From Bacteroidia bacterium (GTDB lineage Bacteria; Bacteroidota; Bacteroidia; AKYH767-A; OLB10), in the NCBI GenBank assembly GCA_016788165.1, contig JAEUTH010000028.1, positions 13,978 to 77,977 on the forward strand: a DNA stretch of 64,000 bases. Reading direction: 5' to 3'. The notes under the pieces are model-generated. The model did not search any database, was not told the DNA's origin, and worked only from the letters and a program-made list of their open reading frames with translations. Shown piece after piece: positions 1,772 to 43,444 of the stretch (its first letter is position 1; every line of letters starts with the position of its first letter). The translations under genes were made by a program, and so were the position numbers.

Positions 1772-4369
1772 ATGAAAAAATTACTAATCATATTTTTTGG
1801 GTTTTATAGTCTGATTGCACAAGCAACACATAACCGTGCAGGCGAAATAACTTACAGGCAAATATCATTGTTTTATTACGAAGCCACTATTGTAACTTAT
1901 ACCAAAACCAGCAGCGCTATTGACAGGCCTGTACTTGAACTGCATTGGGGCGATAATACTTTTGATACAGTTTCGCGTGTAAATCAGGCATCGGTTGGAA
2001 CCGATATAACTAAAAACACATACATAGGATATCATAATTATGCAGCAGCAGGAATTTATAAACTTCACTGCGAGGATATGAACCGTAATGGCGGTGTTAT
2101 TAATATACCCAATAGTATAAACACCAGTTTTTATATTGAAACGCTTTTGCAGATTAATCCGTTTTTAGGATTTAATAACTCGCCCGTTTTGCTTAATCCA
2201 CCTATTGACCAGGGTTGCAGCAATCAAACCTTTATGCACAATGCAGGTGCGTTTGACCCCGATGGCGATAGTTTAAGTTATGAGTTATTTATATGCCGCG
2301 GCAATGGTGGTTTGCCCTGTCCGGGATATTCATTTCCAACGGCTACGGTATCGTTTAGCTTAGATAGCATAACCGGTGATTTGCGTTGGCAAAACCCCAA
2401 CAGCATTGCCTGTGGCGAATGGAATGTTGCCTTTTTAATAAAAGAATGGCGCAATGGTGTAAATATTGGCTACATAGAACGCGATATGCAGATTACCATT
2501 TATTGTAATTGCCCTAACAATACACCGCAACTTAATTTAGTAACAACCGATACTTGTGTAGAAGCCGGTACTTTTATAACCTTAGCAGCTACCGCTACCG
2601 ATCCTGATAACAATCCCATATCGCTAACAGCTTCGGGTGGGCCTTTTTTAATTACGCCCGACTCGGCATATCTTACCACCACACCACCACCACCTACCAC
2701 TAAAATTTTAAACTGGCAAACTACCTGTAACCATGTGCGCAAAGCACCATGGACGGTTTTGTTTAAAGCCGAAGACAGTTACCCCAATCCGGCACCACCA
2801 CCCACTAATTATAACTTGGTTGTGTTTCAGAATATGAATATCACCGTAGTAGCACCAGCGCCTAAAAACCCTGCTGCTGCACCTTTGGGAAATGCCATAC
2901 AGTTAAATTGGAACGCATCTGTTTGCGATTCGGTTAAGGGCTATGACATTTATCGCAGAAATGGGTTTTATGGATTTATACCTTCATCATGCGAAACCGG
3001 AGTGCCGGCTTATACAGGTTATGTAAAAGTTGGAAACACAACAGGCATTGCCAATACAACATACGTAGATAATAATAATGGTGCCGGCCTTATAAATGGT
3101 ATTGATTACTGTTATATGATAGTGGCCACCTTTGCCGATGGAGCCGAGAGTTATGCCTCTGTTGAAGTATGCACGCAGCTAAAGCGCGATTTGCCTGTAA
3201 TTACCAATGTTAGTATTAATACAACAAATGCTACGGCCGGCCAGGTATATGTAGCATGGAGTAAACCTACTGAGTTAGACACAACACAAACACCCGGGCC
3301 GTACAAATACGTAATTAGTGGCAGCAGCGATTTTACCGGAGGAGCCTTTGCATTAATTGATTCGTTTTTTGATTTAAACGACACCATACTTATTGATGAT
3401 TTTGTAAACACACAAACCTTACCACGCAGTTATAAAATTGAATTTTATAATATGACTCCGGGCAATACATTTAAAATAGGGCAATCGCAAATTGCTTCAT
3501 CCATATTTCTTAACTGTGTGCCCACTGACGAAGCCACAACACTTTCGTGGAATGAAACGGTGCCCTGGAGCAATACGCTTTATACCATCTATCGTCAAAA
3601 CACTTCCGGTATTTTTGATTCAATAGGTACAAGTGCTACTCAAAGTTATACGGATACCGGACTGGTAAACGGCAACACCTATTGTTACAAAATCAGAAGT
3701 ACCGGCAATTACAGTGCAACGGGCTTTGTTGATCCGATAATAAATTTTTCGCAAGAGCAATGTGCCATACCTGTTGATAACGTGGCGCCATGTACACCTG
3801 CGCTTATGGTTAATGCCAATTGTATTGGATTTAATAATGTTTTAAGCTGGCATTTTGATAGTGCTGCATGTTATCAGGATATTGCAGGCTACAACGTGTA
3901 TTATAAAAATGATTCGATAAACGATTTGGTGTTGCTTGTTACCTTAGGTTTAGATACCAACTTTTTACATGATAGTCTTTTTTCAATTGCAGGTTGTTAC
4001 CAGGTAACTGCCTTTGATAGCCTGGGAAATGAAAGTGCTTTAAGTAATAAGGTGTGTGTGGATAATTGCCCGGTATATGAATTGCCAAATATTTTTTCGC
4101 CCAACGATGATGGTAAAAATGATACGTTTCATCCGCTGCCATACAGCTATGTAAGCAATGTTAATATTACTATATATGATCGTTGGGGACTGGTAATGTT
4201 TAAAACCAACGATGCTGATATTAACTGGAATGGCAACCTCGACAATAAAGACAAACAATGCCCCGATGGTGTTTATTTTTACATCTGCACCGTTAACGAA
4301 ATTTATTTAAGTGGCATAAAACCGCGCTTGCTAAAAGGTTATGTACAATTACTGCGCAATGGCAAATAA
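1772..4369 (+). CDS. Secreted multi-domain protein with FnIII/Ig-like repeats and a T9SS type-B (gliding motility-associated) CTD
   Basis: Signal peptide ending AQA; C-terminus LPNIFSPNDDGKNDTF...IYDRWG...WNG...DGVYFY...GYVQLLR. Confidence 0.85.
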   Translation: MKKLLIIFFGFYSLIAQATHNRAGEITYRQISLFYYEATIVTYTKTSSAIDRPVLELHWGDNTFDTVSRVNQASVGTDITKNTYIGYHNYAAAGIYKLHCEDMNRNGGVINIPNSINTSFYIETLLQINPFLGFNNSPVLLNPPIDQGCSNQTFMHNAGAFDPDGDSLSYELFICRGNGGLPCPGYSFPTATVSFSLDSITGDLRWQNPNSIACGEWNVAFLIKEWRNGVNIGYIERDMQITIYCNCPNNTPQLNLVTTDTCVEAGTFITLAATATDPDNNPISLTASGGPFLITPDSAYLTTTPPPPTTKILNWQTTCNHVRKAPWTVLFKAEDSYPNPAPPPTNYNLVVFQNMNITVVAPAPKNPAAAPLGNAIQLNWNASVCDSVKGYDIYRRNGFYGFIPSSCETGVPAYTGYVKVGNTTGIANTTYVDNNNGAGLINGIDYCYMIVATFADGAESYASVEVCTQLKRDLPVITNVSINTTNATAGQVYVAWSKPTELDTTQTPGPYKYVISGSSDFTGGAFALIDSFFDLNDTILIDDFVNTQTLPRSYKIEFYNMTPGNTFKIGQSQIASSIFLNCVPTDEATTLSWNETVPWSNTLYTIYRQNTSGIFDSIGTSATQSYTDTGLVNGNTYCYKIRSTGNYSATGFVDPIINFSQEQCAIPVDNVAPCTPALMVNANCIGFNNVLSWHFDSAACYQDIAGYNVYYKNDSINDLVLLVTLGLDTNFLHDSLFSIAGCYQVTAFDSLGNESALSNKVCVDNCPVYELPNIFSPNDDGKNDTFHPLPYSYVSNVNITIYDRWGLVMFKTNDADINWNGNLDNKDKQCPDGVYFYICTVNEIYLSGIKPRLLKGYVQLLRNGK

Positions 4370-5016: not shown

Positions 5017-7521
5017 TTATTCGAAATAGTACACGCGTTTAACCCGTTGCGATATGCTGCAAAGCACTTCATAAACAATGGTCTGCAATTGTGCTGCTAT
5101 TTGCTGTATGGGATAATCAGCACCAAACACCAATACATCATCACCTTCTTTGCAATCAATACCGGTTACATCTAACATGCACATATCCATGCAAATGTTT
5201 CCAACTACAGGCACTAACTTACCATGTATCATCATCCGGCCCACGCCATTGCCTAACTTTCGTAAATAACCATCAGCATAACCAATGGCAACCGTTGCTA
5301 TGCGCATATCATTAAGTGCAATACCACTACGGTTATAACCTATAGTTTCACCGGCTGCAATGGTTTTAATTTGTGATATGGTTGTATGCAACGAAGCAAC
5401 GGGTTGCAATGCCAGCTCGGCATCGGTATTGCCAATGCCATGCAACCCTATGCCCAAACGTACCATGTTAAACTGCGCCTGCGGCCACCGCACCACACCT
5501 GCCGAATTTAAAATATGCAGCAGTGGTTGGTAACCCAAACCGGTAATAAGTTTATTGCTTATAGTCGAAAATAAATCAATTTGGTTTTGTGTAAAGGCAT
5601 CATGTTGTGGTGCATCGCTTGCTGCTAAATGCGAAAATATACTTGCCACTTTTATATGTGGCCAGTTTTTCAGATGGTTAACTAATGGTGTTATTTCTTT
5701 CATCTCAAAACCAAGCCTGTGCATGCCGGTATCTAACTTTATATGAACGCTAAAATGTTTCTTACGCGCTTTAATTGATTTACGTTGTGCCGCTTGATTA
5801 TAAGCTGCAAGCAAACGCATACTGTAAATTTCGGGCTCCAACTCAAAATCAACAATGCTGTCAAAACTCTGTTCATCCGGATTCATAACCATAATGGGTA
5901 ATTTAATACCCGCCTGCCGTAAAGCCACACCTTCATCGGCATAAGCAACTGCTAAATAATCGCTGTGATGGTGTTGCAATACATTGGCAATTTCGAAACT
6001 GCCGCTGCCATAAGCAAAAGCTTTTACCATGCACATGGTTTTAGTTGTGGGGTTTAATAAGCTTTTATAAAACTTGAAATTATTTAAAATGCCATTAAGG
6101 TTAATTTGTAATACGGTTTGATGCGCTTTTTGTTGTAGCAGTTTTACAATACGTTCAAATTCAAAAGTACGTGCACCTTTAATTAAAATGGTTTGATCGG
6201 TTAGTAGCTGCTTATTATGTTGCGATATAAAAGCATCGGTATTTTCATAAAAAAAACTATTACCGCTAAACCGTTTTTTTTGGCGTGTTAATGCGGCTCC
6301 TATTCCAATAAAGCAATGCAACTTTTTTTGCATAACCATGGTAGATACGGCCTCATATAAATCGTTTTCGCTTTGTCCGCTTTGCAGTATATCTGATAAG
6401 ATCAAAGTACGTTGGTTATGTTGCTGCTGTTGCATTAAAAAATCGAGTGCAATACCGAGCGAAGCCATATCGCTGTTGTAACTATCGTTAATGAGCGAAC
6501 AGTTGTTAATGCCGGCCTTTAACTCTAATCGCATGGCTACAGCAGGTAGCAGTCGCATGCCTGCTTTTATATTTTCATGCGGCACCTGCATATACAACAA
6601 TGTAGCCCAACAGGTAATAGCATTGTCAATAGAAGCCTCATCGGTAAATGGTATTACGATGCTAAAGTTTTTATTTTGATAGCTGGCTTGGATGGTTGTC
6701 GAGTCAGCTTGCTTACTGATGGCAGTAATTTCTAAATCAGCTTTTTGCTTTTTACTCCAACTAAAACCTGTAAGTGTTTGCTTGTTAGTTTTATTGATAA
6801 GCGGCAGTATATGCTGCATAACCATATCAGCATCTGAATTATAAATAAGAGCCCTGCTGTGTTTAAATAATAAAAGTTTTTCAACTGTTTTTACATTACG
6901 ACTGCTAAAGTTTTCATCGTGCGCACTGCTAATATTGGTAAGTATGCCTATAGTAGGACTAATTATATGTTCAAGCTTTTCCATTTCGTACGGTTGCGAA
7001 ATGCCTGCTTCAAACAAAGCTAATGTGTGGCTGTTTTTCATTTGCCACACGGATAGGGGTACACCAATTTGTGAGTTGTAACTTTTGGGGCTACGTACAA
7101 TATTGTAATGCTCTTTAAGCAAATGATACAGCCACTCTTTTACAATGGTTTTGCCGTTGCTGCCTGTAATACCAATTACCGGATATTGAAACTGATGCCT
7201 GTGAGAGGCTGCTAACATTTGCAGCGCAAGCAATGTATCGTCAACCAAAATATAATTGGCTGCCACCGGATGATTTTCAGTTGCCGTGTGGTTGATTATG
7301 GTTTTATCAGACACTACAAAATTGCGAATGCCTTTTTGTAATGCATCGGCAATAAATTTATGCCCATTATTACTGGATGTTACCAAAGCAAAAAACAAAC
7401 TGTTGCTACTGTTTTCAATTCGTCTGGTATCAATTATTAACGAAGTTATATAGGTTTCAATGTTCGAAAACTGAAACAAAGTGCCGTTAATAATAGTTGT
7501 TATTTGATTTATGGCGTACAT
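5017..7521 (-). CDS. alr: Bifunctional MurF-like ligase / alanine racemase
   Basis: ITGSNGKT P-loop, NDSYNSD, then alanine racemase MVKAFAYGSG (PLP Lys), KLDTGMHRLG, IGYADG, VGNICMD. Confidence 0.93.
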   Translation of the reverse strand: MYAINQITTIINGTLFQFSNIETYITSLIIDTRRIENSSNSLFFALVTSSNNGHKFIADALQKGIRNFVVSDKTIINHTATENHPVAANYILVDDTLLALQMLAASHRHQFQYPVIGITGSNGKTIVKEWLYHLLKEHYNIVRSPKSYNSQIGVPLSVWQMKNSHTLALFEAGISQPYEMEKLEHIISPTIGILTNISSAHDENFSSRNVKTVEKLLLFKHSRALIYNSDADMVMQHILPLINKTNKQTLTGFSWSKKQKADLEITAISKQADSTTIQASYQNKNFSIVIPFTDEASIDNAITCWATLLYMQVPHENIKAGMRLLPAVAMRLELKAGINNCSLINDSYNSDMASLGIALDFLMQQQQHNQRTLILSDILQSGQSENDLYEAVSTMVMQKKLHCFIGIGAALTRQKKRFSGNSFFYENTDAFISQHNKQLLTDQTILIKGARTFEFERIVKLLQQKAHQTVLQINLNGILNNFKFYKSLLNPTTKTMCMVKAFAYGSGSFEIANVLQHHHSDYLAVAYADEGVALRQAGIKLPIMVMNPDEQSFDSIVDFELEPEIYSMRLLAAYNQAAQRKSIKARKKHFSVHIKLDTGMHRLGFEMKEITPLVNHLKNWPHIKVASIFSHLAASDAPQHDAFTQNQIDLFSTISNKLITGLGYQPLLHILNSAGVVRWPQAQFNMVRLGIGLHGIGNTDAELALQPVASLHTTISQIKTIAAGETIGYNRSGIALNDMRIATVAIGYADGYLRKLGNGVGRMMIHGKLVPVVGNICMDMCMLDVTGIDCKEGDDVLVFGADYPIQQIAAQLQTIVYEVLCSISQRVKRVYYFE

Positions 7522-7548
7522 CGCTGTTATTGGTTTTAAGCACTTTTT

Positions 7549-8139
7549 TTAACCATTGTTTTTAGGCATGTACACAGTATTAAAACAACTGCGGCATAAA
7601 GGAACATAGCTTTCTTTTTCGCCCACTAAAATTTGTGCATTATCTGCGGCAAGCCTGTGCGAGTTATGTGCCAGTTCGCCACAATGCATACATATTGCAT
7701 GCACCTTGGTTATATACTCGGCAATGGATAATAGTTGTGGCATGGAGCCAAAAGGCTTGCCGGTAAAGTCCATATCCAAACCGGCCACCACTACACGTAC
7801 ACCGCTGTTAGCTAATTGTGTACAAACAGCAGGCAAGGCATCGTCAAAAAACTGTGCTTCGTCAATGCCTACTATTTCGCACGTACCTATGTGGCTAAGT
7901 ATTTCTGACGATGTGTGTACAGCCGTGCTTACAATGGCATTTGCATTATGCGATACAATTTGCGCCTCGCTGTAGCGGTTGTCAATTTTAGGTTTAAATA
8001 TTTCGACCTTAAGTTTGGCAATTTGCGCACGTTTTAGTCTGCGTATTAATTCTTCGGTTTTACCCGAAAACATACTGCCACATATTACTTCTATCCAGCC
8101 ACGTTTAGGCCACTGCTGATGCCTATGTTCCAAAAACAT
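7549..8139 (-). CDS. tdk: Thymidine kinase
   Basis: GSMFSGKTEELIRR, IDEAQFF, AGLDMDF, Zn-binding CMHC...CRSC. Confidence 0.96.
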   Translation of the reverse strand: MFLEHRHQQWPKRGWIEVICGSMFSGKTEELIRRLKRAQIAKLKVEIFKPKIDNRYSEAQIVSHNANAIVSTAVHTSSEILSHIGTCEIVGIDEAQFFDDALPAVCTQLANSGVRVVVAGLDMDFTGKPFGSMPQLLSIAEYITKVHAICMHCGELAHNSHRLAADNAQILVGEKESYVPLCRSCFNTVYMPKNNG

Positions 8140-33298: not shown

Positions 33299-35410
33299 AT
33301 GAAAAAAATATATGCTGCATTGTTAATAGCATGCTTTACGCAAGCCTCAGCCCAAAACAATCAAAATATCCCTTGCATAACCACTGAAGTGATGCAGGAA
33401 TTAAAAGATGCTGACCCACAAATTCAAAAGAATTTAAATGATTTAGAGTTTTTTACCGAAAAATATATCAAAGAAAAACATGTTAAAAATGCCGATGGTA
33501 CCTATCAAAAAGTGCAAGGGGTAGTAAGAGTTATACCTGTGGTTTTTCACATTATACATGAAGGGGGCAACGAAAACATTTCAATAGCGCAATGCCAAAG
33601 TCAAATTGATGTATTAAATGCTGATTTCAGACGACTTAATGCTGATACTACCGATACACCAGGCCCATTTCAAGCTATTGGTGGCGATGCCGAAATTGAA
33701 TTTAGAATGGCACAATTAGATCCTAATGGAAATTGTACTGATGGTGTGGTACGCTTGTTTTCTACACTTACAAACAATGCACGCAATAATGTAAAATCGT
33801 TAAGCTATTGGCCTAGCAATAAATATTTAAATGTTTGGGTTGTAAAAAGCATACGCGGTGCACAACCACCCTTGCAAGTTGCCGGGTTTGCACAATTTCC
33901 GGGTGGTGCAGCGGCCACAGATGGTATAGTAATTTGCCATCAGTTTTTAGGTACCATAGGTACTTCAACAGGCAGTGGTGAAGGCCGCACAACTACACAT
34001 GAAGTTGGCCACTGGCTTAACTTAATACATATTTGGGGTGATGATGCTGGCGCATGTTCAGGCTCTGATTTTGTAAGCGATACGCCCAATCAAGCAAACC
34101 TAAACCAAAGTAATTGTCCTACATTTCCACATACCGATGCATGTACGCCTGCAGGCAATGGTGTATTATATAGCGATTACATGGACTACACCAATGGTAA
34201 TTGCCAAAATATTTTTACAGTTGGCCAATGTGCACGTATGAATGCAGCCTTATCTTCTGGTACCAGTCAACGCAACAACCTATGGTCGTCAACCAATTTA
34301 GTAGCTACCGGCACCAATGGAACACCGGCAGTACCATGCGCACCTATACCTTCTGTTGTTTTTGGTGTACGAAATATTTGTGCAGGTGGTAACTTAACTT
34401 TTAATGAGTATGTATATAATGGTATTCCTACATCGCGCGATTGGGTTTTTACCGGTGGCAACCCTGCAACCAGCACCAATGCCAGCGAAGTGGTAACTTA
34501 CAACACACCCGGCACCTATAATGTTACTTATACAGCAACAAATGCAGTAGGCTCTAACACTACTACTTATGCAGGCATTGTAAATGTGTTGCCAACTATC
34601 GGTGTTAAAAGTGTGCCATATACTGACGGATTTGAAGGCAGTTTCCCCGGTTTTGATTACGATGTTATTAATGGCGAAGGCAATTTTACATGGGAGCAAA
34701 CCAGCTTAGCTGCCGCAACAGGCACCAAATCAATACGGATAAATAACTTTGCCGGTAATGCAATTTTTGATGATTTTTATACACCAACCTTTAATTGTAC
34801 AAATGTTACCAATGTGCAACTTCAATATAAAGTTGCCTTTGCTGTAAGAAATACCGCCAGTATTGATAATTTGAAGGTTTTTGTGAGTACGGATTGTGGT
34901 AAGTCCTGGACATTACGGCAAACCAAGTCGGGGCTAAACTTAGCAACCGTTTCAACGGCTGTATCATCGGCATTTGTCCCTTCTGCTACACAATGGCGTC
35001 AGGAAACAGTTAATATGAACTTAAATGCAAGCAATGAACCCAATGTAAGATTTAGGTTTCAGTTTACCTATGGCACCAATGGCCTATATGCCAATAACAT
35101 TTATATTGACGACATAAACATCTCTGGCCTAACAAATATTAACGATGCTTTTGCCAAAGACTCAGAATTAAGCCTTAAGCCAAACCCTACAAAAGGTATA
35201 GCTACATTAACATTTAATGTAACCCAAGCAGGTTCCTATCAAATTCAAGTTTTGGATGTGGTTGGAAAAGTTTGTCAAGCTCAGGTGTTTAACGACTTAT
35301 CTTTAGGAATAAATAAAACCGAAGTTGGCAATCAGCTTAAGCCGGGATTGTATTTCGTTCAAGTAATACATAACCATAAAATGGCTGTATTAAAGCTGGT
35401 AATTGAATAG
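33299..35410 (+). CDS. M43 (pappalysin/ulilysin-like) metalloprotease with PKD and beta-sandwich domains and a T9SS type-A CTD
   Basis: IPVVFHII, HEVGHWLNLIH, Met-turn YMDY, PKD-like WVFTGG...YNTPGTY, CTD PNP...PGLYFV...KLVIE. Confidence 0.92.
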   Translation: MKKIYAALLIACFTQASAQNNQNIPCITTEVMQELKDADPQIQKNLNDLEFFTEKYIKEKHVKNADGTYQKVQGVVRVIPVVFHIIHEGGNENISIAQCQSQIDVLNADFRRLNADTTDTPGPFQAIGGDAEIEFRMAQLDPNGNCTDGVVRLFSTLTNNARNNVKSLSYWPSNKYLNVWVVKSIRGAQPPLQVAGFAQFPGGAAATDGIVICHQFLGTIGTSTGSGEGRTTTHEVGHWLNLIHIWGDDAGACSGSDFVSDTPNQANLNQSNCPTFPHTDACTPAGNGVLYSDYMDYTNGNCQNIFTVGQCARMNAALSSGTSQRNNLWSSTNLVATGTNGTPAVPCAPIPSVVFGVRNICAGGNLTFNEYVYNGIPTSRDWVFTGGNPATSTNASEVVTYNTPGTYNVTYTATNAVGSNTTTYAGIVNVLPTIGVKSVPYTDGFEGSFPGFDYDVINGEGNFTWEQTSLAAATGTKSIRINNFAGNAIFDDFYTPTFNCTNVTNVQLQYKVAFAVRNTASIDNLKVFVSTDCGKSWTLRQTKSGLNLATVSTAVSSAFVPSATQWRQETVNMNLNASNEPNVRFRFQFTYGTNGLYANNIYIDDINISGLTNINDAFAKDSELSLKPNPTKGIATLTFNVTQAGSYQIQVLDVVGKVCQAQVFNDLSLGINKTEVGNQLKPGLYFVQVIHNHKMAVLKLVIE

Positions 35411-36341: not shown

Positions 36342-37301
36342 ATGCGTATAGGATTGGACATCATGGGTGGCGATTATGCACCGTTAGAAATAACTTTAGG
36401 TGCACTTTTAGCACAACCGCTTTTAACCGAAGTCCGTTTGGTATTAATCGGAAGTGAATCGGCAGCCCGTAAAATAATTACGGAAAACCAAGGCAATCCG
36501 GCTAACTTCGACTTTGTTAACAGTATCGATGTAATTGAAATGCACGAACATCCGGCCAAAGCATTTCAACAAAAACCAAACTCAAGCATTAGTATCGGAT
36601 TTCACTTACTTAAAGAAGGTAAAATTGATGCCTTTTGCAGTGCCGGAAATACCGGAGCCATGTTAGTGGGCAGTATGTTTTCAGTAAAAACAATACAAGG
36701 CATTATGCGACCCGCTATAAGTACACTGGTTCCAAAAGAAAAGGGCGGGTATGGTTTGCTTTTAGATGTAGGCGTAAATGCCGACTGCAAACCCGAAAAC
36801 CTGCAACAATTTGCTATGTTAGGCTCACTTTATGCCGAACATGTTTGCCATATACCTAACCCAAAGGTAGCTTTAATGAGTATTGGCGAGGAAGACGAAA
36901 AAGGCAATGTGCTTACACAAGCAGCAAACCAATTATTAAAAAATACTTCAGGAATTAATTTTGTTGGAAACGTAGAAGGTCGCGACCTGTTTAATGATAA
37001 GGCCGATGTTATTGTTTGCGATGGTTTTACAGGCAATATCATGCTAAAATTAGCCGAATCATTTTATTCGCTTACTACGAAACGCAAACTTAAAGACGAG
37101 TATTTTGATAAGTTTAATTTCGAAAGCTACGGAGGAACACCCATTTTAGGCGTAAATGGAACCGTAATGATAGCACATGGTATATCAAATGCCACAGCTG
37201 TTAAAGCCATGCTTGTGTTAACGCATGAAGTTGTAGCAGCGCAACTTCCACAAAAAATCGCCTCAGCAATTGCCTCGCAAGTGCCACAAGCCAACCAATA
37301 A
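36342..37301 (+). CDS. plsX: Phosphate acyltransferase PlsX
   Basis: DIMGGDYAP, SAGNTGA, RPAI, LLDVGVNAD, IGEEDEKG, DGFTGNIMLK, AHG. Confidence 0.96.
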   Translation: MRIGLDIMGGDYAPLEITLGALLAQPLLTEVRLVLIGSESAARKIITENQGNPANFDFVNSIDVIEMHEHPAKAFQQKPNSSISIGFHLLKEGKIDAFCSAGNTGAMLVGSMFSVKTIQGIMRPAISTLVPKEKGGYGLLLDVGVNADCKPENLQQFAMLGSLYAEHVCHIPNPKVALMSIGEEDEKGNVLTQAANQLLKNTSGINFVGNVEGRDLFNDKADVIVCDGFTGNIMLKLAESFYSLTTKRKLKDEYFDKFNFESYGGTPILGVNGTVMIAHGISNATAVKAMLVLTHEVVAAQLPQKIASAIASQVPQANQ

Positions 37302-37391
37302 CTTGCCGGTACAGTTTTTTTAAATTTTTTTTATAACCCAGGCGTCTTTTCATTAAATAATTACGTCTTAAGGTTAATTCAAACATTTGTA

Positions 37392-37919
37392 ATGGATGAG
37401 CAACAACTCGTAACCAACTGTTTAAAAGGAGACAAAACAGCTCAAAAGCAGTTTTACGAAATGTTTGCCCGCAAAATGATGGGAGTTTGTTTACGCTACT
37501 CCAACGATTTGGCAACAGCCGAAGATTATTTGCAGGAATCATTTATTAAAGTGTTTGGAAAGTTAAGTCAATATCAGTTTAAAGGTTCTTTAGAAGGCTG
37601 GGTAAAACGAATAGTAGTAAATGTTGTTTTAGATGAACTCCGTAAAAACCGGATTTTGTTCGATAGTAATGCCGAAGTAACGGACGTACTGCAAACAACA
37701 GATGATGTAGTTTCGAACATGGAGGCAAAACAATTATTGCAGATAATACAAAGGTTGCCCACCGGTTACAGAACCGTATTTAACTTATATGCTATCGAAG
37801 GTTACCAGCATAACGAAATTGCCAACATGTTACAAATTAGCGAGAGCACATCAAAATCACAATACCAAAAAGCAAAAATCCAGATTCAGAAAACACTAAA
37901 AGCACAAACTATTATTTAA
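37392..37919 (+). CDS. ECF-type RNA polymerase sigma factor
   Basis: Region 2 AEDYLQESFIKVF...EGWVKRI; region 4 LPTGYRTVFNLYAIEGYQHNEIANML...TSKSQ. Confidence 0.95.
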   Translation: MDEQQLVTNCLKGDKTAQKQFYEMFARKMMGVCLRYSNDLATAEDYLQESFIKVFGKLSQYQFKGSLEGWVKRIVVNVVLDELRKNRILFDSNAEVTDVLQTTDDVVSNMEAKQLLQIIQRLPTGYRTVFNLYAIEGYQHNEIANMLQISESTSKSQYQKAKIQIQKTLKAQTII

Positions 37920-38788
37920 TGCAACCCACCTCGTTTGAAAATATGTTTAAAGATGCATTCGAAAATTTCGAAGCAGAGGTTAATCCACAAATTTGGGTGC
38001 AAGTGCAACAGCAAATTCCAACCACTGCAGTTACACCACAAGCAAGTGTTACTTTTTCAGGGGTTAAAACATTATTAATTGCAGGTGTAACAGCCATTGC
38101 TGCAATTACAGCAGCGGTTGTTTACAAATCCGAGCCAAAGTTAAATACCCTGGTTGAAAGCAAAGATAATCCCGTTGATAATAAGGTTGAAAAGACTGTA
38201 GCGCCTGTACAAAGTATTGAAAAGGTATTACCGGAGCTTATAAAAGAAAACGAAACCCAAAAAGTACAACCCGCGCCAGCTCCTGCTTCAACAACCGTTT
38301 TAAAATTGCCCGAAACAACAAATGAAAGTTCGGCAAACAATGATAACCAAGCTTCCGAACCATTAAACACCGTAACCAATCAAACTAAAATAAAAGAGTC
38401 AGAACCGGTAGTCGAAGTTATAAATCAGGATGATAAGCATGAAAACAACCTATCATCAATTCAAAACACAGAAGCTGAGAAAACAAAAGAAACTGAAGAA
38501 ATTAAAGACTTTAATTGGGGCAGAATAAGCAATACTTTTACACCCAATGCCGATGGAAAAAATGACGTTTTTAAAATACATTTACCCGATGCCAATTATT
38601 TTAAAGCAACCATTTTAAACATAAACGGAAAAATTTTGCATGAATGGGAAGGCGAAAACGGCTTTTGGGATGGAAAAGATGCTGGGGGTTATGATTTACC
38701 AAAGGGAATGTATGTGTATTACATTATTGCAACTGATACAAACGGAAATACACATAAAACAAAAGGAAGCATTAGCATATTAAAATAA
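37919..38788 (+). CDS. Putative membrane-anchored anti-sigma factor with a C-terminal T9SS type-B CTD
   Basis: TAATG overlap with the sigma gene; N-terminus FENMFKDAFENFEAEVNPQIW; one TM; low-complexity linker; SNTFTPNADGKNDVF...WDG...GMYVYYI...GSISILK. Confidence 0.75.
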   Translation: MQPTSFENMFKDAFENFEAEVNPQIWVQVQQQIPTTAVTPQASVTFSGVKTLLIAGVTAIAAITAAVVYKSEPKLNTLVESKDNPVDNKVEKTVAPVQSIEKVLPELIKENETQKVQPAPAPASTTVLKLPETTNESSANNDNQASEPLNTVTNQTKIKESEPVVEVINQDDKHENNLSSIQNTEAEKTKETEEIKDFNWGRISNTFTPNADGKNDVFKIHLPDANYFKATILNINGKILHEWEGENGFWDGKDAGGYDLPKGMYVYYIIATDTNGNTHKTKGSISILK

Positions 38789-38815
38789 ATATTAAACAAT
38801 TATAATTATATCACC

Positions 38816-41800
38816 ATGAAAAAATTATTTACATTATTAATTGCAATCACAGCCTTTGTAGTGTTGGGTTTGCAAAGTGCCGAAGCATCACATGCACAAG
38901 GTGCCGACATTACCTATACTTATACCGGTACGCCCAATGAGTATATTATAACTTTGCGTTTTTACCGCGATTGTGCCGGTATTGACGCACCACCATCTGT
39001 AGATATTTGTTACTCATCGGCATCTTCAGGTTTTAGTAGTACCATTATTATGTTTCCTATTGCAGGTACAGGTAATCCCATTCCAAGCTCATCATGCGTA
39101 ACTACGCCTACCAATTGTACAGGCTTTGGTGGTTTTGGTACTGAAGAATGGATTTACCAGGAAGTTTTAACCTTGCCTAATGCGGCAAACGACTGGATTT
39201 TCAGCTACAATGTTTGTTGCCGTAATACGCAAATTACGACCTTAGCCAATGCGGGCGGACAGGATATTTATGTAAGTGCCACCTTAAATAATTTAGATTT
39301 CCCAACCAACAGTTCACCTTATTTTGACTCCGTACCGGTTACTACCTTTTGTGTAAATAACCAATTCTATTATTACCAGGGAGCTTTTGATGTTGATGGC
39401 GATTCATTAAATTACAGTTTAGTACCTGCAGAAGGTAACTTTAGTTGTCCTGCAGCGCCAACTAACTTAGCATATAATGCACCATTTTCGGCTACAAACC
39501 CATTACAAACTTTAAATGGAACAACCATTGACCCATTAACCGGAGTAATTTCATTTTTACCCAATGCCATTCAGGTAGGGGTAATTTGTGTTTTAGTTGA
39601 AGAGTATGATACTACGCAGTTTCCGGCAGTTAAAAAGGGGCAGGTTAAACGTGATTTGCAGATATTAGTAATTAGCAATTGCATCGTTATTCAGCCAGCC
39701 CCAAGTGGCTTAGGTTCTGGTGGCGGTTATACCAATGCACTTTTTGCAAGTTGTGCCGATACATCCGTAATTGTTACTTTATCAGATGACGTACAATGTG
39801 GTTCTATTGCTGCCGATGGTTCTGATTTCCGTGCTATTGGGCCTAAAGGGCAGCCCAATCCCATATTTAAAGCCGAAGGTGTAAATTGTGTTAACGGTCA
39901 AACCGATAGCGTTCGGGTGTTCTTTTACTACCCATTAACAAAAACGCGCACTGCACTTTACATTAAAAAAGGAAATGATGGAAACACCATGCTTAGTGAA
40001 TGTGGAAACACAATTTATGAAACAAATGAATTAGATTCATTAGTTGTTAACGACACCATAAATATTATTATTCAGGATACTTCAATTATTGACTTAAATG
40101 TACCCAATGTAGCGCCTTGTGTCTTTAAAGAACTTACAGTTAATATGCTCGATCAGTTTATTTGTTCAACTATCAGAGCTAATGGTAGCGATTTTAAATT
40201 GGTAGATGCTACCGGAACACAATTCCCTTTAATACAAGCTTATGGAGCATGCTCAGGTCCAACACCATTAAGCCCCGGTTCCTATACATCAACAATAACT
40301 GTTGTTGCCGCTCAAACAGTTGTTGGTACCAGTCCGTATTATTTAATTGCATTAACAGGTACCGATAATAACACCATAGCCAATTTATGCGAAACCTATG
40401 TAAATGTAGGCGACACCTTAGCAGTTATTGATGCCTCAGCTCCACTTCAGGTGTCTTTAGGTGCTGATATTTCGCAATGTGCCAATTTAGGCAACCCGGT
40501 ATTAAACACACAATTAGTTGGTGTAACAACATCTTGGTTATATAATGGCAATAATTTACCTGATACAGCCAGTTTTATTAGTGCCACCCAAACCGGCCAA
40601 TACATTGTAAATGTTTCGGCAAGCCCTACTTGTAATGGTTCTGATACAGTAAATGTAAATCTGATAGCAGCGCCTACAGCCACCATTTTAGCAAATGGTA
40701 TTTCAACCGATCAGGTTACCATTTGTGTGGGTACACCTTTCCCAACATTAGATGGAACGGTAGCAGGAGCAGTAGAATATGTGTGGACATTAAATGGTAC
40801 CGTAGTTAGCAATGCAGCAACCTTTGTACCTACCCAAGATGGTAGCTATACTTTACAAACAAGCTCACTACCTAATGGCGGCTGCGCCACTACCGATTTA
40901 ATAACCATCACTACTGTTCAATCAATAGTAGTAAATTTAGGTAACAATATTACACAATGCGCCAACGTAGCGCCACCGGTTTTAGATGCAGGTGTTTTCC
41001 CGGGTGCTAATTATTTATGGAGCAATGGCGAAACTACCCAAACCGTAACTGCAACTGTAGCTGGTACCTATATAGTAACAGTTACTTATGGCGTTAACTG
41101 TAGTGCAAGCGATACGATTGATGTAATTTTTGATGCCGTGCCTGCAATACCGGCATTGGCCGATCAAAATATTTGTTATAACATAGCAATAAGCCCACTA
41201 AATGCCAATCCGTTTGGTACACAACCACCTACAGCAACTTATACCTGGACTGATGCAGGTGGCGCAGTAGTTGGCAATGCCGCATTGTTTAATCCGTTGG
41301 TAGCAGGTACATATACAGTTTCAATTTCAAACAATGGATGTTCTGTTACCGATGATGCTACCGTAACTGTAGAAGCTCAAATTCCATTAAACTTGGGAGC
41401 TCCACAAACTATATGTGGTGCACCTATTTTAATTGATGCAGGCTTTGCCGGTCAGGTAACTGCATATAACTGGACAAAAGATGGAAGCCCATTTGGCAAC
41501 ACACAGACTATAAATGCAAATGGCCCCGGTACTTACACTGTAACCACGACTACAGCATTGGGATGTACATCTGTTGCATCTGTTCAAATTAATGCAGGTA
41601 CTTTTGCAACAACAATTACTGGCGACAATGTAATTTGCGAAAACAGTAGCGCAACCTTAGATGCCGGTTATACAGGAACAGCAGTTGCTAATTTTGCCTG
41701 GACATTAAACGGAACAGCTACAGGCAGCAATGCAAATACCATAACAGCCAATGCAGCAGGTAACTATGTTGTTGTAATTACAGACGAATTTGGATGTGTG

Positions 41801-42349
41801 GCTACTGATACAGCATCTTTAGCTATTGAAAATATTTTAGTTGCACCTATACCCGTTTGTACTGCAGCACCAGTTGGCGGCACGTTTGCTTACATCTACA
41901 CCTGGAATGCCATTGCAGGTTCAACAGGTTATGAAATAAGCTTAGATGGTGGCCTAACCTGGATACAACCCAATACGCCTTCGAGCCCAACATCGCACGG
42001 TGTTGCACAACCTGCTCAAGAATTTTTAGTACGCGCCTTAGGTACATTCTGCCCAACAGGCCGTACCTCTGAGCCTGCTCCTTGCCAAGTAGTAATACCA
42101 AACGTTGTTACTCCTAATGGCGATGGTAAAAACGATACATTTGAAATGCTGAATCTTGGTCAATACAAGGGAGCTAAAATGTCAATCTACAACCGCTGGG
42201 GTAATGTAATTTACACAAGCGATGACTATGGTTTAGCAAACAACTATGATTTTAAGGACGAACCAGACGGTACTTATTTCTATAGTTTAAGCATACCGGG
42301 TCAGGAAGCAAAATCGGGTACTATTACCGTATTCCGTAAGCAGAAATAA
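38816..42349 (+). CDS. Large secreted adhesin-like protein with Ig-like repeats and a T9SS type-B CTD
   Basis: Signal peptide; two Cys-containing DGSDF/NGSDF repeats; several LG.....C Ig-like repeats; IPNVVTPNGDGKNDTF...IYNRWG...DGTYFY. Confidence 0.88.
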   Translation: MKKLFTLLIAITAFVVLGLQSAEASHAQGADITYTYTGTPNEYIITLRFYRDCAGIDAPPSVDICYSSASSGFSSTIIMFPIAGTGNPIPSSSCVTTPTNCTGFGGFGTEEWIYQEVLTLPNAANDWIFSYNVCCRNTQITTLANAGGQDIYVSATLNNLDFPTNSSPYFDSVPVTTFCVNNQFYYYQGAFDVDGDSLNYSLVPAEGNFSCPAAPTNLAYNAPFSATNPLQTLNGTTIDPLTGVISFLPNAIQVGVICVLVEEYDTTQFPAVKKGQVKRDLQILVISNCIVIQPAPSGLGSGGGYTNALFASCADTSVIVTLSDDVQCGSIAADGSDFRAIGPKGQPNPIFKAEGVNCVNGQTDSVRVFFYYPLTKTRTALYIKKGNDGNTMLSECGNTIYETNELDSLVVNDTINIIIQDTSIIDLNVPNVAPCVFKELTVNMLDQFICSTIRANGSDFKLVDATGTQFPLIQAYGACSGPTPLSPGSYTSTITVVAAQTVVGTSPYYLIALTGTDNNTIANLCETYVNVGDTLAVIDASAPLQVSLGADISQCANLGNPVLNTQLVGVTTSWLYNGNNLPDTASFISATQTGQYIVNVSASPTCNGSDTVNVNLIAAPTATILANGISTDQVTICVGTPFPTLDGTVAGAVEYVWTLNGTVVSNAATFVPTQDGSYTLQTSSLPNGGCATTDLITITTVQSIVVNLGNNITQCANVAPPVLDAGVFPGANYLWSNGETTQTVTATVAGTYIVTVTYGVNCSASDTIDVIFDAVPAIPALADQNICYNIAISPLNANPFGTQPPTATYTWTDAGGAVVGNAALFNPLVAGTYTVSISNNGCSVTDDATVTVEAQIPLNLGAPQTICGAPILIDAGFAGQVTAYNWTKDGSPFGNTQTINANGPGTYTVTTTTALGCTSVASVQINAGTFATTITGDNVICENSSATLDAGYTGTAVANFAWTLNGTATGSNANTITANAAGNYVVVITDEFGCVATDTASLAIENILVAPIPVCTAAPVGGTFAYIYTWNAIAGSTGYEISLDGGLTWIQPNTPSSPTSHGVAQPAQEFLVRALGTFCPTGRTSEPAPCQVVIPNVVTPNGDGKNDTFEMLNLGQYKGAKMSIYNRWGNVIYTSDDYGLANNYDFKDEPDGTYFYSLSIPGQEAKSGTITVFRKQK

Positions 42350-42366
42350 TAACACGTTAAACCCGT

Positions 42367-42403
42367 AAGCGCCTTGTAAGTTAAATTGCAAGGCGCTTTT
42401 TTT
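42367..42403 (+). terminator. Intrinsic terminator closing the ECF-cargo unit
   Basis: AAGCGCCTTGTAA...TTGCAAGGCGCTT followed by a T run. Confidence 0.85.
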
Positions 42404-42490
42404 ATTTATACAGCTTATAGTTTGATAGCTAAGGCTTTGTAGCTTATTTATACTTTAGCCAACCAATTTTAAGTTTATAATGCGTGATTT

Positions 42491-43444
42491 ATGAAAGTAA
42501 TTGATCATCTGGCAAAATCCAAAACCACTCTTTTTTCAATTGAAATTTTACCTCCGCTAAAGGGTCAAAGCATTCAGTCTATTTTTAATTCCATTGATCC
42601 TTTAATGGAATTTAAGCCGCAGTTTATAGATGTTACGTATCATCGCGAAGAGTATATTTATAAAAAAAGGGAAGGCGGTTTTTTAGAAAAAATTTCAATC
42701 CGTAAGAGGCCAGGTACCGTTGGCATTTGTGCAGCTATCGTGAACAAGTACAAAGTTGATGCAGTGCCACATCTGATATGTGGCGGTTTTAGTAAAGAGG
42801 AAACTGAAAATGCATTGATAGAATTAAATTTTTTAGGCATTGATAATGTTTTGATACTGCGAGGCGATGCCATTAAAACTGAAAATAATTTTATACCACA
42901 TTCGAATGGCCACCACTATGCTTTAGACTTGGTAAAGCAAACAGTTAATTTAAACAAAGGCGTGTATTTAGACGAAGATTTACAAGATAACGAAAACACT
43001 AATTTTTGCATTGGTGTTGCCGGATATCCCGAAAAACATTTCGAAGCACCTAACTTACAAACCGACCTCAAATACCTGCAACTAAAAATTGAAGCCGGTG
43101 CTGATTATGTAGTAACACAAATGTTTTATGATAACAACAAGTACTACAACTTTGTAAATCACTGCAAAGAATCAGGTATTCAAGTACCCATTATACCGGG
43201 CATAAAAGTGCTTACATCTAAAAAACAAATTACCAACTTACCTAAGGTATTTCATATTGATTTGCCGCAAGAATTAATAGAAGAAGTAGTAAAATGTAAA
43301 ACCGATGCAGATGTAAAAAATGTAGGTATTGAATGGGCTATTCAACAATCGAAAGACTTAATAAAATTTGGCGTGCCGTGTTTGCATTATTACACCATGG
43401 GTAATCCTGATATAATTAAACGTGTAGCATCGCAAGTTTTTTAG
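42491..43444 (+). CDS. metF: Methylenetetrahydrofolate reductase
   Basis: FSIEILPP, DVTY, VPHLICG, LRGD, VAGYPEKH, TQMFYD, HYYTM. Confidence 0.95.
   Translation: MKVIDHLAKSKTTLFSIEILPPLKGQSIQSIFNSIDPLMEFKPQFIDVTYHREEYIYKKREGGFLEKISIRKRPGTVGICAAIVNKYKVDAVPHLICGGFSKEETENALIELNFLGIDNVLILRGDAIKTENNFIPHSNGHHYALDLVKQTVNLNKGVYLDEDLQDNENTNFCIGVAGYPEKHFEAPNLQTDLKYLQLKIEAGADYVVTQMFYDNNKYYNFVNHCKESGIQVPIIPGIKVLTSKKQITNLPKVFHIDLPQELIEEVVKCKTDADVKNVGIEWAIQQSKDLIKFGVPCLHYYTMGNPDIIKRVASQVF

Follow-up and report, generated by a model that had tools for sequence, protein, structure and literature searches.

A candidate anti-sigma factor of Dma-type layout that ends in a type IX secretion sorting domain in an uncultured Bacteroidia bacterium

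In Bacteroides thetaiotaomicron, the N-terminal 40 residues of the protein Dma1 are reported to pull down Das1, an ECF21 sigma factor (ECF, extracytoplasmic function), and Dma1 is described as continuing through a transmembrane helix and a long disordered region into an eight-stranded outer-membrane barrel (PMC10927553). The class was published as 'dual membrane-spanning anti-sigma' (Dma), with Reo of the Reo/EcfO pair of B. fragilis as an orthologue, and its authors suggest that the signal is sensed at the outer membrane and that proteolysis follows; the T9SS (type IX secretion system) has 0 occurrences in the main text of that article (PMC10927553). Here, we describe a three-gene unit of an ECF sigma factor, a membrane protein (the partner) and a T9SS cargo in a stretch of 64,000 nt (the window) from Bacteroidia bacterium (GenBank assembly GCA_016788165.1, contig JAEUTH010000028.1, positions 13,978 to 77,977 of the forward strand). 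In our reading, the partner is an anti-sigma factor of the Dma type in which the distal module has been exchanged.

A second described system brings in the T9SS. The C-terminal domain (CTD) of PorA from Porphyromonas gingivalis is reported to bind PorY in the periplasm and to activate PorXY-SigP (PMC12152298, PMC7712824), and PorA that is tethered in the inner membrane, and thus not surface-exposed, is reported still to complement (PMC12152298). For type-B CTDs, five conserved motifs are described as required for secretion, orphan type-B substrates as able to share one PorP/SprF-type shuttle, and T9SS substrates in general as proteins that Sec exports and whose signal peptide is cleaved (PMC12618676). 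The features of the window that bear on the comparison with these systems are as follows (residue numbers are those of the partner).

37392-37919, + strand: ECF sigma factor gene, 175 aa
37919-38788, + strand: partner gene, 289 aa
38816-42349, + strand: cargo gene, 1177 aa, T9SS type-B
37919-38023, + strand: residues 1-35, conserved anti-sigma-like module, modelled as two short helices
38063-38125, + strand: residues 49-69, single hydrophobic helix by hydropathy, putative inner-membrane anchor
38126-38506, + strand: residues 70-196, predicted disordered, low-complexity periplasmic tether (predicted local distance difference test score, pLDDT, <50)
38525-38785, + strand: residues 203-289, T9SS type-B sorting domain (CHU_C/TIGR04131), modelled as an immunoglobulin (Ig)-like beta-sandwich

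The partner resembles Dma1 and Reo in its sigma-adjacent gene, its short N-terminal sigma binder (predicted here), its one inner-membrane helix and its long disordered periplasmic region, but it carries a T9SS type-B sorting domain of ~90 aa instead of the barrel, and its operon adds a T9SS cargo. The tie to the Dma class comes from a hidden Markov model of the N-terminal module, which finds barrel-ended proteins next to sigma genes, and from the sigma factors, which fall into one clade; B. thetaiotaomicron Dma1 itself was compared by description. Since the partner shows every testable Dma feature except the barrel, it is not filed as a member of the class. With the PorA-PorXY-SigP system, as published, it would share the regulatory use of a T9SS CTD, with an ECF sigma factor at the end of the pathway and with function kept when the CTD is held at the inner membrane. 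PorA, however, is described as a true surface cargo whose CTD is of type A and whose signal peptide is cleaved, and which signals through the two-component kinase PorY, whereas the partner has a type-B CTD fused directly to the predicted anti-sigma module; likewise, the output of the PorA system is described as T9SS component genes, whereas that of the window's unit would be a single cargo operon. Type-B cargo described together with PorP/SprF-type shuttles, such as SprB/SprF and the orphan CTDs served by Fjoh_1677, is alike in its TIGR04131/CHU_C end and in a genome that encodes a T9SS and PorP/SprF proteins, and the orphan substrates are also alike in the lack of an adjoining shuttle gene (PMC12618676, PMC9143113), but the partner, in contrast to type-B cargo, appears to lack a cleavable signal peptide, has no passenger and would remain fixed in the inner membrane.

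In the literature searched, with most subscription journals and supplements outside its coverage, we found no anti-sigma factor described whose C-terminus is a T9SS sorting domain. An earlier reading of the same DNA, made from its letters without database searches (the sequence-only reading), had stated that no characterised example was known; this has to be amended, as Dma1/Reo (apart from the CTD) and PorA are published precedents for the two halves of the design. The FlgM/sigma-28 export checkpoint and FecR trans-envelope signalling also tie the activity of a sigma factor to an export or outer-membrane machine, but FlgM is itself exported and not membrane-tethered, and FecR uses a different domain to reach a TonB-dependent receptor. 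Their likeness to the window's system is conceptual, with no sequence relation.

The first gene encodes an ECF (group 4) sigma-70 factor of 175 aa that is limited to regions 2 and 4, matching Sigma70_r2 (E-value of 1.5e-13) and Sigma70_r4_2 (E-value of 7.1e-13) in Pfam and TIGR02937 in NCBIfam (83.2 bits; cut-off, 42.9). Its stop codon TAA (37917-37919) shares one A with the ATG of the partner gene (37919-37921), giving TAATG, and a gap of 27 nt separates the partner from the cargo. The genome of the window has 12 ECF-like sigma factors. In a tree of 42 rows, the sigma factors paired with the partner module form one clade (Shimodaira-Hasegawa-like approximate likelihood ratio test [SH-aLRT] of 96), which includes the window's sigma factor as well as those of barrel-type partners. 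The same clade contains a second sigma factor of this genome, C46 (G000:C46:84658-86581, locus L214). The 452-aa neighbour of the C46 sigma factor has a similar N-terminus, which aligns in register with that of the partner, though weakly; it also contains a stretch of basic residues and a helix, and it matches OMP_b-brl weakly. The two genes are probably this organism's own barrel-type (Dma-like) pair.

An alignment of 23 homologues shows the N-terminal module to have the consensus IExLFKxxFxNFExxVxPxxWxxI, with V21 and W26 invariant, and ~48 conserved residues precede the hydrophobic segment. AlphaFold2, given the homologue alignment, models helices at residues 5-15 and 23-31. Residues 1-75 match no Pfam family even at an E-value of ≤10, and a profile search of the PDB with the partner N-terminus returned no chain below an E-value of 0.36; these two sequence searches gave no match to described anti-sigma domains (e.g., the zf-HC2 and RskA types), and a likeness at the level of structure may still exist. 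When the sigma factor was modelled in complex with partner residues 1-48, as the sequence-only reading had suggested for the N-terminus, the interface score ipSAE was 0.77, 0.78 and 0.77, and the best of three controls scored 0.00. Because we supplied our own alignments, the reference counts for this mark (reached by 58 of 80 solved complexes vs 2 of 110 mismatched pairs) are only rough. The runs share at least 97% of their contacts, with a partner pLDDT of at least 71, and place partner residues 6-35 in contact with region 2 (residues 13-56) and region 4 (residues 111-166) of the sigma factor, a clamped arrangement across the two regions that is familiar from anti-sigma factors. The complex model, a prediction and not a measurement, supports binding of the sigma factor by the partner N-terminus. 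The sequence-only claim that the partner is anti-sigma-like is accordingly strengthened by the TAATG coupling, by a sigma gene upstream of the module gene in 20/20 plus 20/20 loci (see below) and by a complex model that beats its controls. In five relatives (P0004, P0005, P0006, P0010 and P0017), the module is repeated in tandem ahead of the helix, in two to four copies, P0004 (597 aa) having four.

Beyond the module, the best 19-residue hydrophobic window of the partner is residues 51-69, a segment that is only partly helical in the AlphaFold2 model. Exactly one hydrophobic segment lies above threshold in 21/21 homologues, starting at residues 46-63. Summed over the 15 residues on either side of the helix in the 21 CHU_C-type partners, the charges come to a net of about +32 for the N side and -9 for the C side; D/E number 4 on the N side and 48 on the C side, and the N-in call for these partners comes from the acidic residues alone. 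In the wider family, a K/R bias is clear (90 on the N side vs 33 on the C side). These sequence features favour an N-in (cytoplasm), C-out topology, and the position of the helix, the conserved N-terminal module next to the sigma gene and the flank charge together argue for the absence of a cleavable signal peptide. The tether of 127 aa (E, 15%; K, 12%; N, 11%; T, 10%; net charge, -9) has a pLDDT of <50 at residues 71-192. Its sequence is unconserved and unalignable among relatives, but its length ranges from 123 to 208 aa (median, 146 aa; n = 21) and is never below 123 aa; by our own estimate of ~0.35 nm per residue, the contour length is ~40 nm or more.

Pfam gives the partner a single match, to CHU_C (residues 203-287; 53.2 bits against a cut-off of 27), and TIGR04131 scores 38.5 bits (cut-off, 35), so both families that the sequence-only reading had put forward for a check exceed their curated cut-offs, and its layout of one transmembrane helix, linker and CTD is recovered. 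TIGR04131 matches all 23/23 partner homologues, in which P209, D212, W250, G252 and Y265 are invariant. The region from about residue 200 to 289 is modelled as a beta-sandwich with a pLDDT of at least 90, and its Foldseek matches include the CTD of PorZ (5m11) and that of NucA in a T9SS complex (8glk_D; template-modelling score of 0.59, target-normalised). Pfam, NCBIfam and the model all place only this CHU_C/TIGR04131 sandwich at the C-terminus of the partner, with no OMP_b-brl_2 barrel. The claim that the partner has no passenger domain is correct for the window copy but does not extend to the family, as a PKD domain precedes the CTD in 5/21 local homologues and occurs in 39/149 representatives. 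Partner CTDs cluster apart from those of their cognate cargo proteins (3 label changes vs a shuffled mean of 31), with partly parallel branching, which points to long-term maintenance and not to recent copying. Only the more distant locus L027 (G056) departs from this pattern: its partner CTD groups with that of its own neighbouring cargo (SH-aLRT of 94), which may reflect independent domain capture or gene conversion. Many relatives (e.g., G022:C76, G015:C19 and G013:C50) also contain frames of ~145-170 aa that end in CHU_C and are seemingly CTD-only small proteins.

A profile of the 75 N-terminal residues matched 1961 representative proteins at an E-value of ≤0.001 and 418 at an E-value of ≤1e-10. 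Among the best 149 representatives, 115 carry CHU_C and 39 carry PKD, the rest being mostly short fragments by listed length; the public names of relatives are only 'gliding motility-associated C-terminal domain-containing protein' or 'hypothetical protein'. When 400 other genomes of the phylum were sampled evenly, 20 had the module at an E-value of ≤1e-5, all of the same class, and an ECF sigma gene lies directly upstream of the module protein in 20/20. The C-termini of these 20 proteins carry OMP_b-brl (9 proteins), CHU_C (3) or TonB_C (1), the rest having no recognised domain. The nine barrels bear out the sequence-only remark that ECF partners of similar layout end in an outer-membrane barrel.

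The order of the unit is kept in relatives. We searched 60 related genomes, many of which gave full-length partner matches, and in the first 11 loci a sigma homologue lies directly upstream of the partner (11/11). In 20 longer loci collected afterwards, which overlap with the first 11 places, the sigma gene is directly upstream in 20/20 (42-54% identical to the window's) and the partners are 290-378 aa long. A cargo homologue of 902-1255 aa follows directly in 18/18 loci that reach far enough; 17 of these are 35-55% identical over the first ~800-1000 residues, and that of L027 only 24%. A putative metF open reading frame (ORF) comes next in 14/18 loci, is absent in three and is cut off by a contig end in one. 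The gaps run from -8 to +48 nt between sigma and partner and from -4 to 112 nt between partner and cargo. A reverse search from the cargo N-terminus gave 80 loci in species-representative genomes, all of them metagenome-assembled genome (MAG) records; these loci overlap with the partner-seeded ones (several share a contig), and kin are not independent. The genome G035, which is unpublished, was not used for any of the conclusions. Where the cargo is at least 40% identical and at least 1700 nt are available upstream, sigma and partner lie directly upstream in 41/46 loci, a figure that includes one locus with an over-long ORF call (L115) added by inspection to the script count of 40. In two of the 41, the partner is split into two ORFs (L130) or its ORF lacks the N-terminal motif (L148); the five exceptions are L113, L165, L168, L174 and L124, the last of which has a sigma-partner pair downstream instead. 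Cargo paralogues below 40% identity have sigma and partner in 0/18 loci. The survey of the sigma / helix-linker-CTD / cargo order that the sequence-only reading had proposed therefore finds the unit conserved.

In L124, the sigma-partner pair lies 3' of the cargo homologue (7031-7958), and the arrangement may be a tandem cassette. A search for cultured carriers of a CHU_C-type partner returned only MAG records, and all nameable carriers are MAGs. Two broader searches were less productive: a protein search with the whole partner gave 3 matches among 997 candidates, and a locus search with the full partner alignment returned almost only CTDs of unrelated cargo and was of no use for synteny. Within the window's genome, the partner's N-terminal module occurs in only one protein. 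A short CHU_C protein (C28, 258 aa) was considered as a second system and rejected, since it has no adjoining sigma gene and lies beside an alpha-amylase with a type-A tail.

Near the sigma start, 20/20 related loci carry the motif TGCAACY-N15/16-MRTCT, located ≤56 nt upstream of the called start or just inside evidently over-long ORF calls. The AAC at -35 and the CGTC-like -10 are of the form typical of ECF promoters. This motif and the short gene gaps point to an autoregulated sigma-partner-cargo transcript in the relatives. The copy in the window is atypical:

37333-37369, + strand: atypical promoter-motif copy upstream of the sigma gene, with ATAACC, a 25-nt spacer and CGTCTT; GCGTCT stands at the expected -35

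Here, the spacer from AACC to CGTCTT is 9 nt too long and contains a second CGTCT, as if CAGGCGTCT had been inserted. Given the atypical copy and the lack of enrichment in the genome (see below), autoregulation in the window is suggested by the relatives only. The promoter motif occurs a second time in L031 (5376-5403), after the cargo gene and just before the end of the contig.

How might such a unit work? In the scheme we favour, the sigma factor would be held by the ~40-aa cytoplasmic module of an inner-membrane-anchored partner, whose long disordered tether would cross the periplasm and present the CTD as an outer-membrane-proximal docking module. The T9SS would recognise the CTD through the SprA translocon and/or a PorP/SprF-type shuttle, so that a sigma factor held at the inner membrane would be physically coupled to the secretion apparatus. 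A change in this coupling could expose the tether to proteolysis and free the sigma factor, which would then drive its own operon, including the T9SS-secreted cadherin-like/Ig-repeat surface protein. We infer the T9SS engagement, the direction of the signal and the proteolytic release. A T9SS that could play this role is complete in the genome of the window, which encodes SprA, GldM, GldN and five PorP/SprF proteins, and the tether of always at least 123 aa, together with homologues that end in outer-membrane barrels, suggests that reaching the outer membrane matters. We consider the chances evenly poised that docking of the CTD at the T9SS or the outer membrane is the coupling that is sensed. 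The sequence-only reading had called the partner a decoy substrate; this is one of several readings, and the homology is accounted for no less well by docking to the outer membrane in place of the Dma barrel.

Several results weigh against this scheme. No PorP/SprF gene lies on the contig of the window (the five genome matches are elsewhere), so that a cognate shuttle cannot be singled out; T9SS substrates anchored in the inner membrane are not among the classes described, and that the CTD meets the T9SS at all is something we infer. The fold of the CTD is a generic Ig-like sandwich, with streptococcal peptidase domains, CopC and FlgD as the top Foldseek matches. On the cytoplasmic side, the score of the complex model may partly mirror likeness to solved sigma/anti-sigma complexes, the N-terminal alignment to the genome's own barrel-type paralogue is weak (hhalign E-value of 0.0014; probability, 18%), and K/R alone show no positive-inside bias in the CHU_C-type partners (36 on the N side vs 39 on the C side). 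Finally, no canonically spaced promoter motif was found upstream of the window's sigma gene, and the motif is not enriched in the genome (4 matches vs 4 in a reversed control), leaving the regulon search at chance.

Within the scheme, a more specific version can be drawn in which the partner is an inner-membrane-tethered T9SS substrate and reports mechanically. Its CTD would be gripped by the translocon or by a PorP/SprF shuttle, the latter perhaps linked to the moving gliding track; the grip would pull the 123-208-aa tether, and strain or exposure would lead to cleavage and release of the sigma factor. We regard this version as possible but doubtful. If true, the adhesin would be made only while the secretion or motility machine runs, and such partners would be natural translocation-intermediate traps for studying how T9SS substrates are recognised.

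The CTD may, in another account, never enter the translocon and instead act in the periplasm in the manner of PorA, binding a periplasmic or inner-membrane partner or competing for a shuttle or chaperone against free CTDs of the cargo. Release of the sigma factor would then report secretion load, with the sigma freed when unsecreted cargo accumulates or runs out, a load feedback. The binding of PorY by the PorA CTD and the complementation by inner-membrane-tethered PorA (PMC12152298) are reported precedents, and the partner and its cargo, which are co-transcribed in this account, both carry a type-B CTD. We nevertheless think this unlikely, since the tether never falls below 123 aa and homologous proteins end in outer-membrane barrels, the separate clusters of partner and cargo CTDs disfavour simple competition for one site, and the PorA CTD is of type A and works through a histidine kinase. 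A simpler account would take the partner for an ordinary single-pass anti-sigma factor that senses in the periplasm with its CHU_C-like sandwich, independently of the T9SS; this suits the commonness of the Ig-like fold, the joining of the same N-terminal module to TonB_C or to no recognised domain, and the lack of an adjoining PorP/SprF gene. It sits poorly with the TIGR04131 match in 23/23 homologues and CHU_C in 115 of the best 149 representatives, with an operon that always includes a type-B cargo, and with a disordered spacer of 123-208 aa, which is unusual for a simple periplasmic sensor; we judge it improbable. That the partner is no anti-sigma factor at all, but a membrane-anchored or secreted accessory (anchor or chaperone) of the cargo whose adjacency to a sigma gene means only co-expression, we consider very improbable. 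The public names given to relatives and the lack of a known anti-sigma domain by Pfam or PDB would allow it, but a sigma gene adjoins the module gene in both sets of 20/20 loci, including relatives without the CTD and without such a cargo, the complex model passes its controls, and the sigma stop codon overlaps, or almost overlaps, the partner start.

Returning to the Dma-type scheme, one polypeptide would here join a cytoplasm-to-outer-membrane link of the Dma type to a T9SS sorting domain used as a regulatory signal in the manner of PorA. The 1961 representatives at an E-value of ≤0.001 show that the family is not a one-off, and the conservation of the unit in uncultured Bacteroidia suggests that adhesin expression is wired to the secretion machine. 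If the T9SS engages the CTD, the unit would be a direct checkpoint on secretion at the level of the sigma factor, the partner would be an inner-membrane-anchored carrier of a T9SS signal and thus a substrate class not yet described, and sigma output would offer an in vivo genetic handle on the recognition of type-B signals. Without such engagement, the family would still show that Dma-type anti-sigma factors can exchange their distal module (barrel, CTD or TonB_C), which constrains how these proteins sense their signal.

The third gene of the unit and its end contain two further features:

39296-39685, + strand: cadherin-like domain of the cargo (residues ~161-290), found with VIA-align
42367-42408, + strand: intrinsic-terminator-like hairpin (42367-42398) and T run, closing the unit

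The cargo runs from a signal-peptide-like N-terminus (by eye) through a conserved Cys-rich region, the cadherin-like domain and repeats to CHU_C at residues 1093-1171 (42092-42328; 66.6 bits), and TIGR04131 scores 42.9 bits. Its conserved N-terminal 330 residues were modelled with a mean pLDDT of 77.7, and Foldseek with this model returned nothing at an E-value of ≤0.001. VIA-align matched residues ~161-290 to extracellular cadherin (EC) domains and to the cadherin-like modules of the adhesin SraP, with middling values (Z of 6-7.2; root-mean-square deviation of 1.9-2.5 Å over ~90 residues, the EC-like matches having 1.9 Å over about 91). The conserved acidic motif QxAxDxDGDS (cargo residues 188-197) lies inside this domain and, as we take it, resembles a calcium-binding motif. 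Calling the cargo adhesin-like is plausible but weakly supported by these models. The genome of the window has 10 proteins with a cargo-type N-terminus and 22 CHU_C matches, 18 of them over the cut-off.

The terminator has a 13-bp stem with 6 GC pairs, followed by TTTTTATTTA, and is the sole strong site within 37000-42700. The call rests on this single long stem, as the scan total is at chance (5 found vs 5.8 expected). ORF coordinates and the terminator scan agree with the sequence-only account of a TAATG overlap, a 1177-aa type-B cargo starting 27 nt on and one closing terminator. Contigs from RNA libraries of three studies match parts of the unit at 99-100%, namely the sigma gene (37724-37883), the sigma/partner junction (37865-38035, which bridges 37917-37921) and four places in the cargo; these contigs carry no strand, start or level and may include DNA carry-over, and the uncovered parts are uninformative. 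For the 2-kb stretch 37250-39250, all sampled words occur in runs of at least five studies, among which the source sample may be included.

The unit is flanked by ORFs at 36342-37301 and 42491-43444, which, judged by eye, are putative plsX and metF. Farther upstream, a 703-aa ORF (33299-35410) shows, by eye only, an HExxH-type metalloprotease motif and a T9SS type-A-like tail. A second cargo-type N-terminal region with a CHU_C tail is found in an 865-aa protein at 1772-4369 of the window (G000:C17:15749-18346), which stands without a sigma/partner pair.

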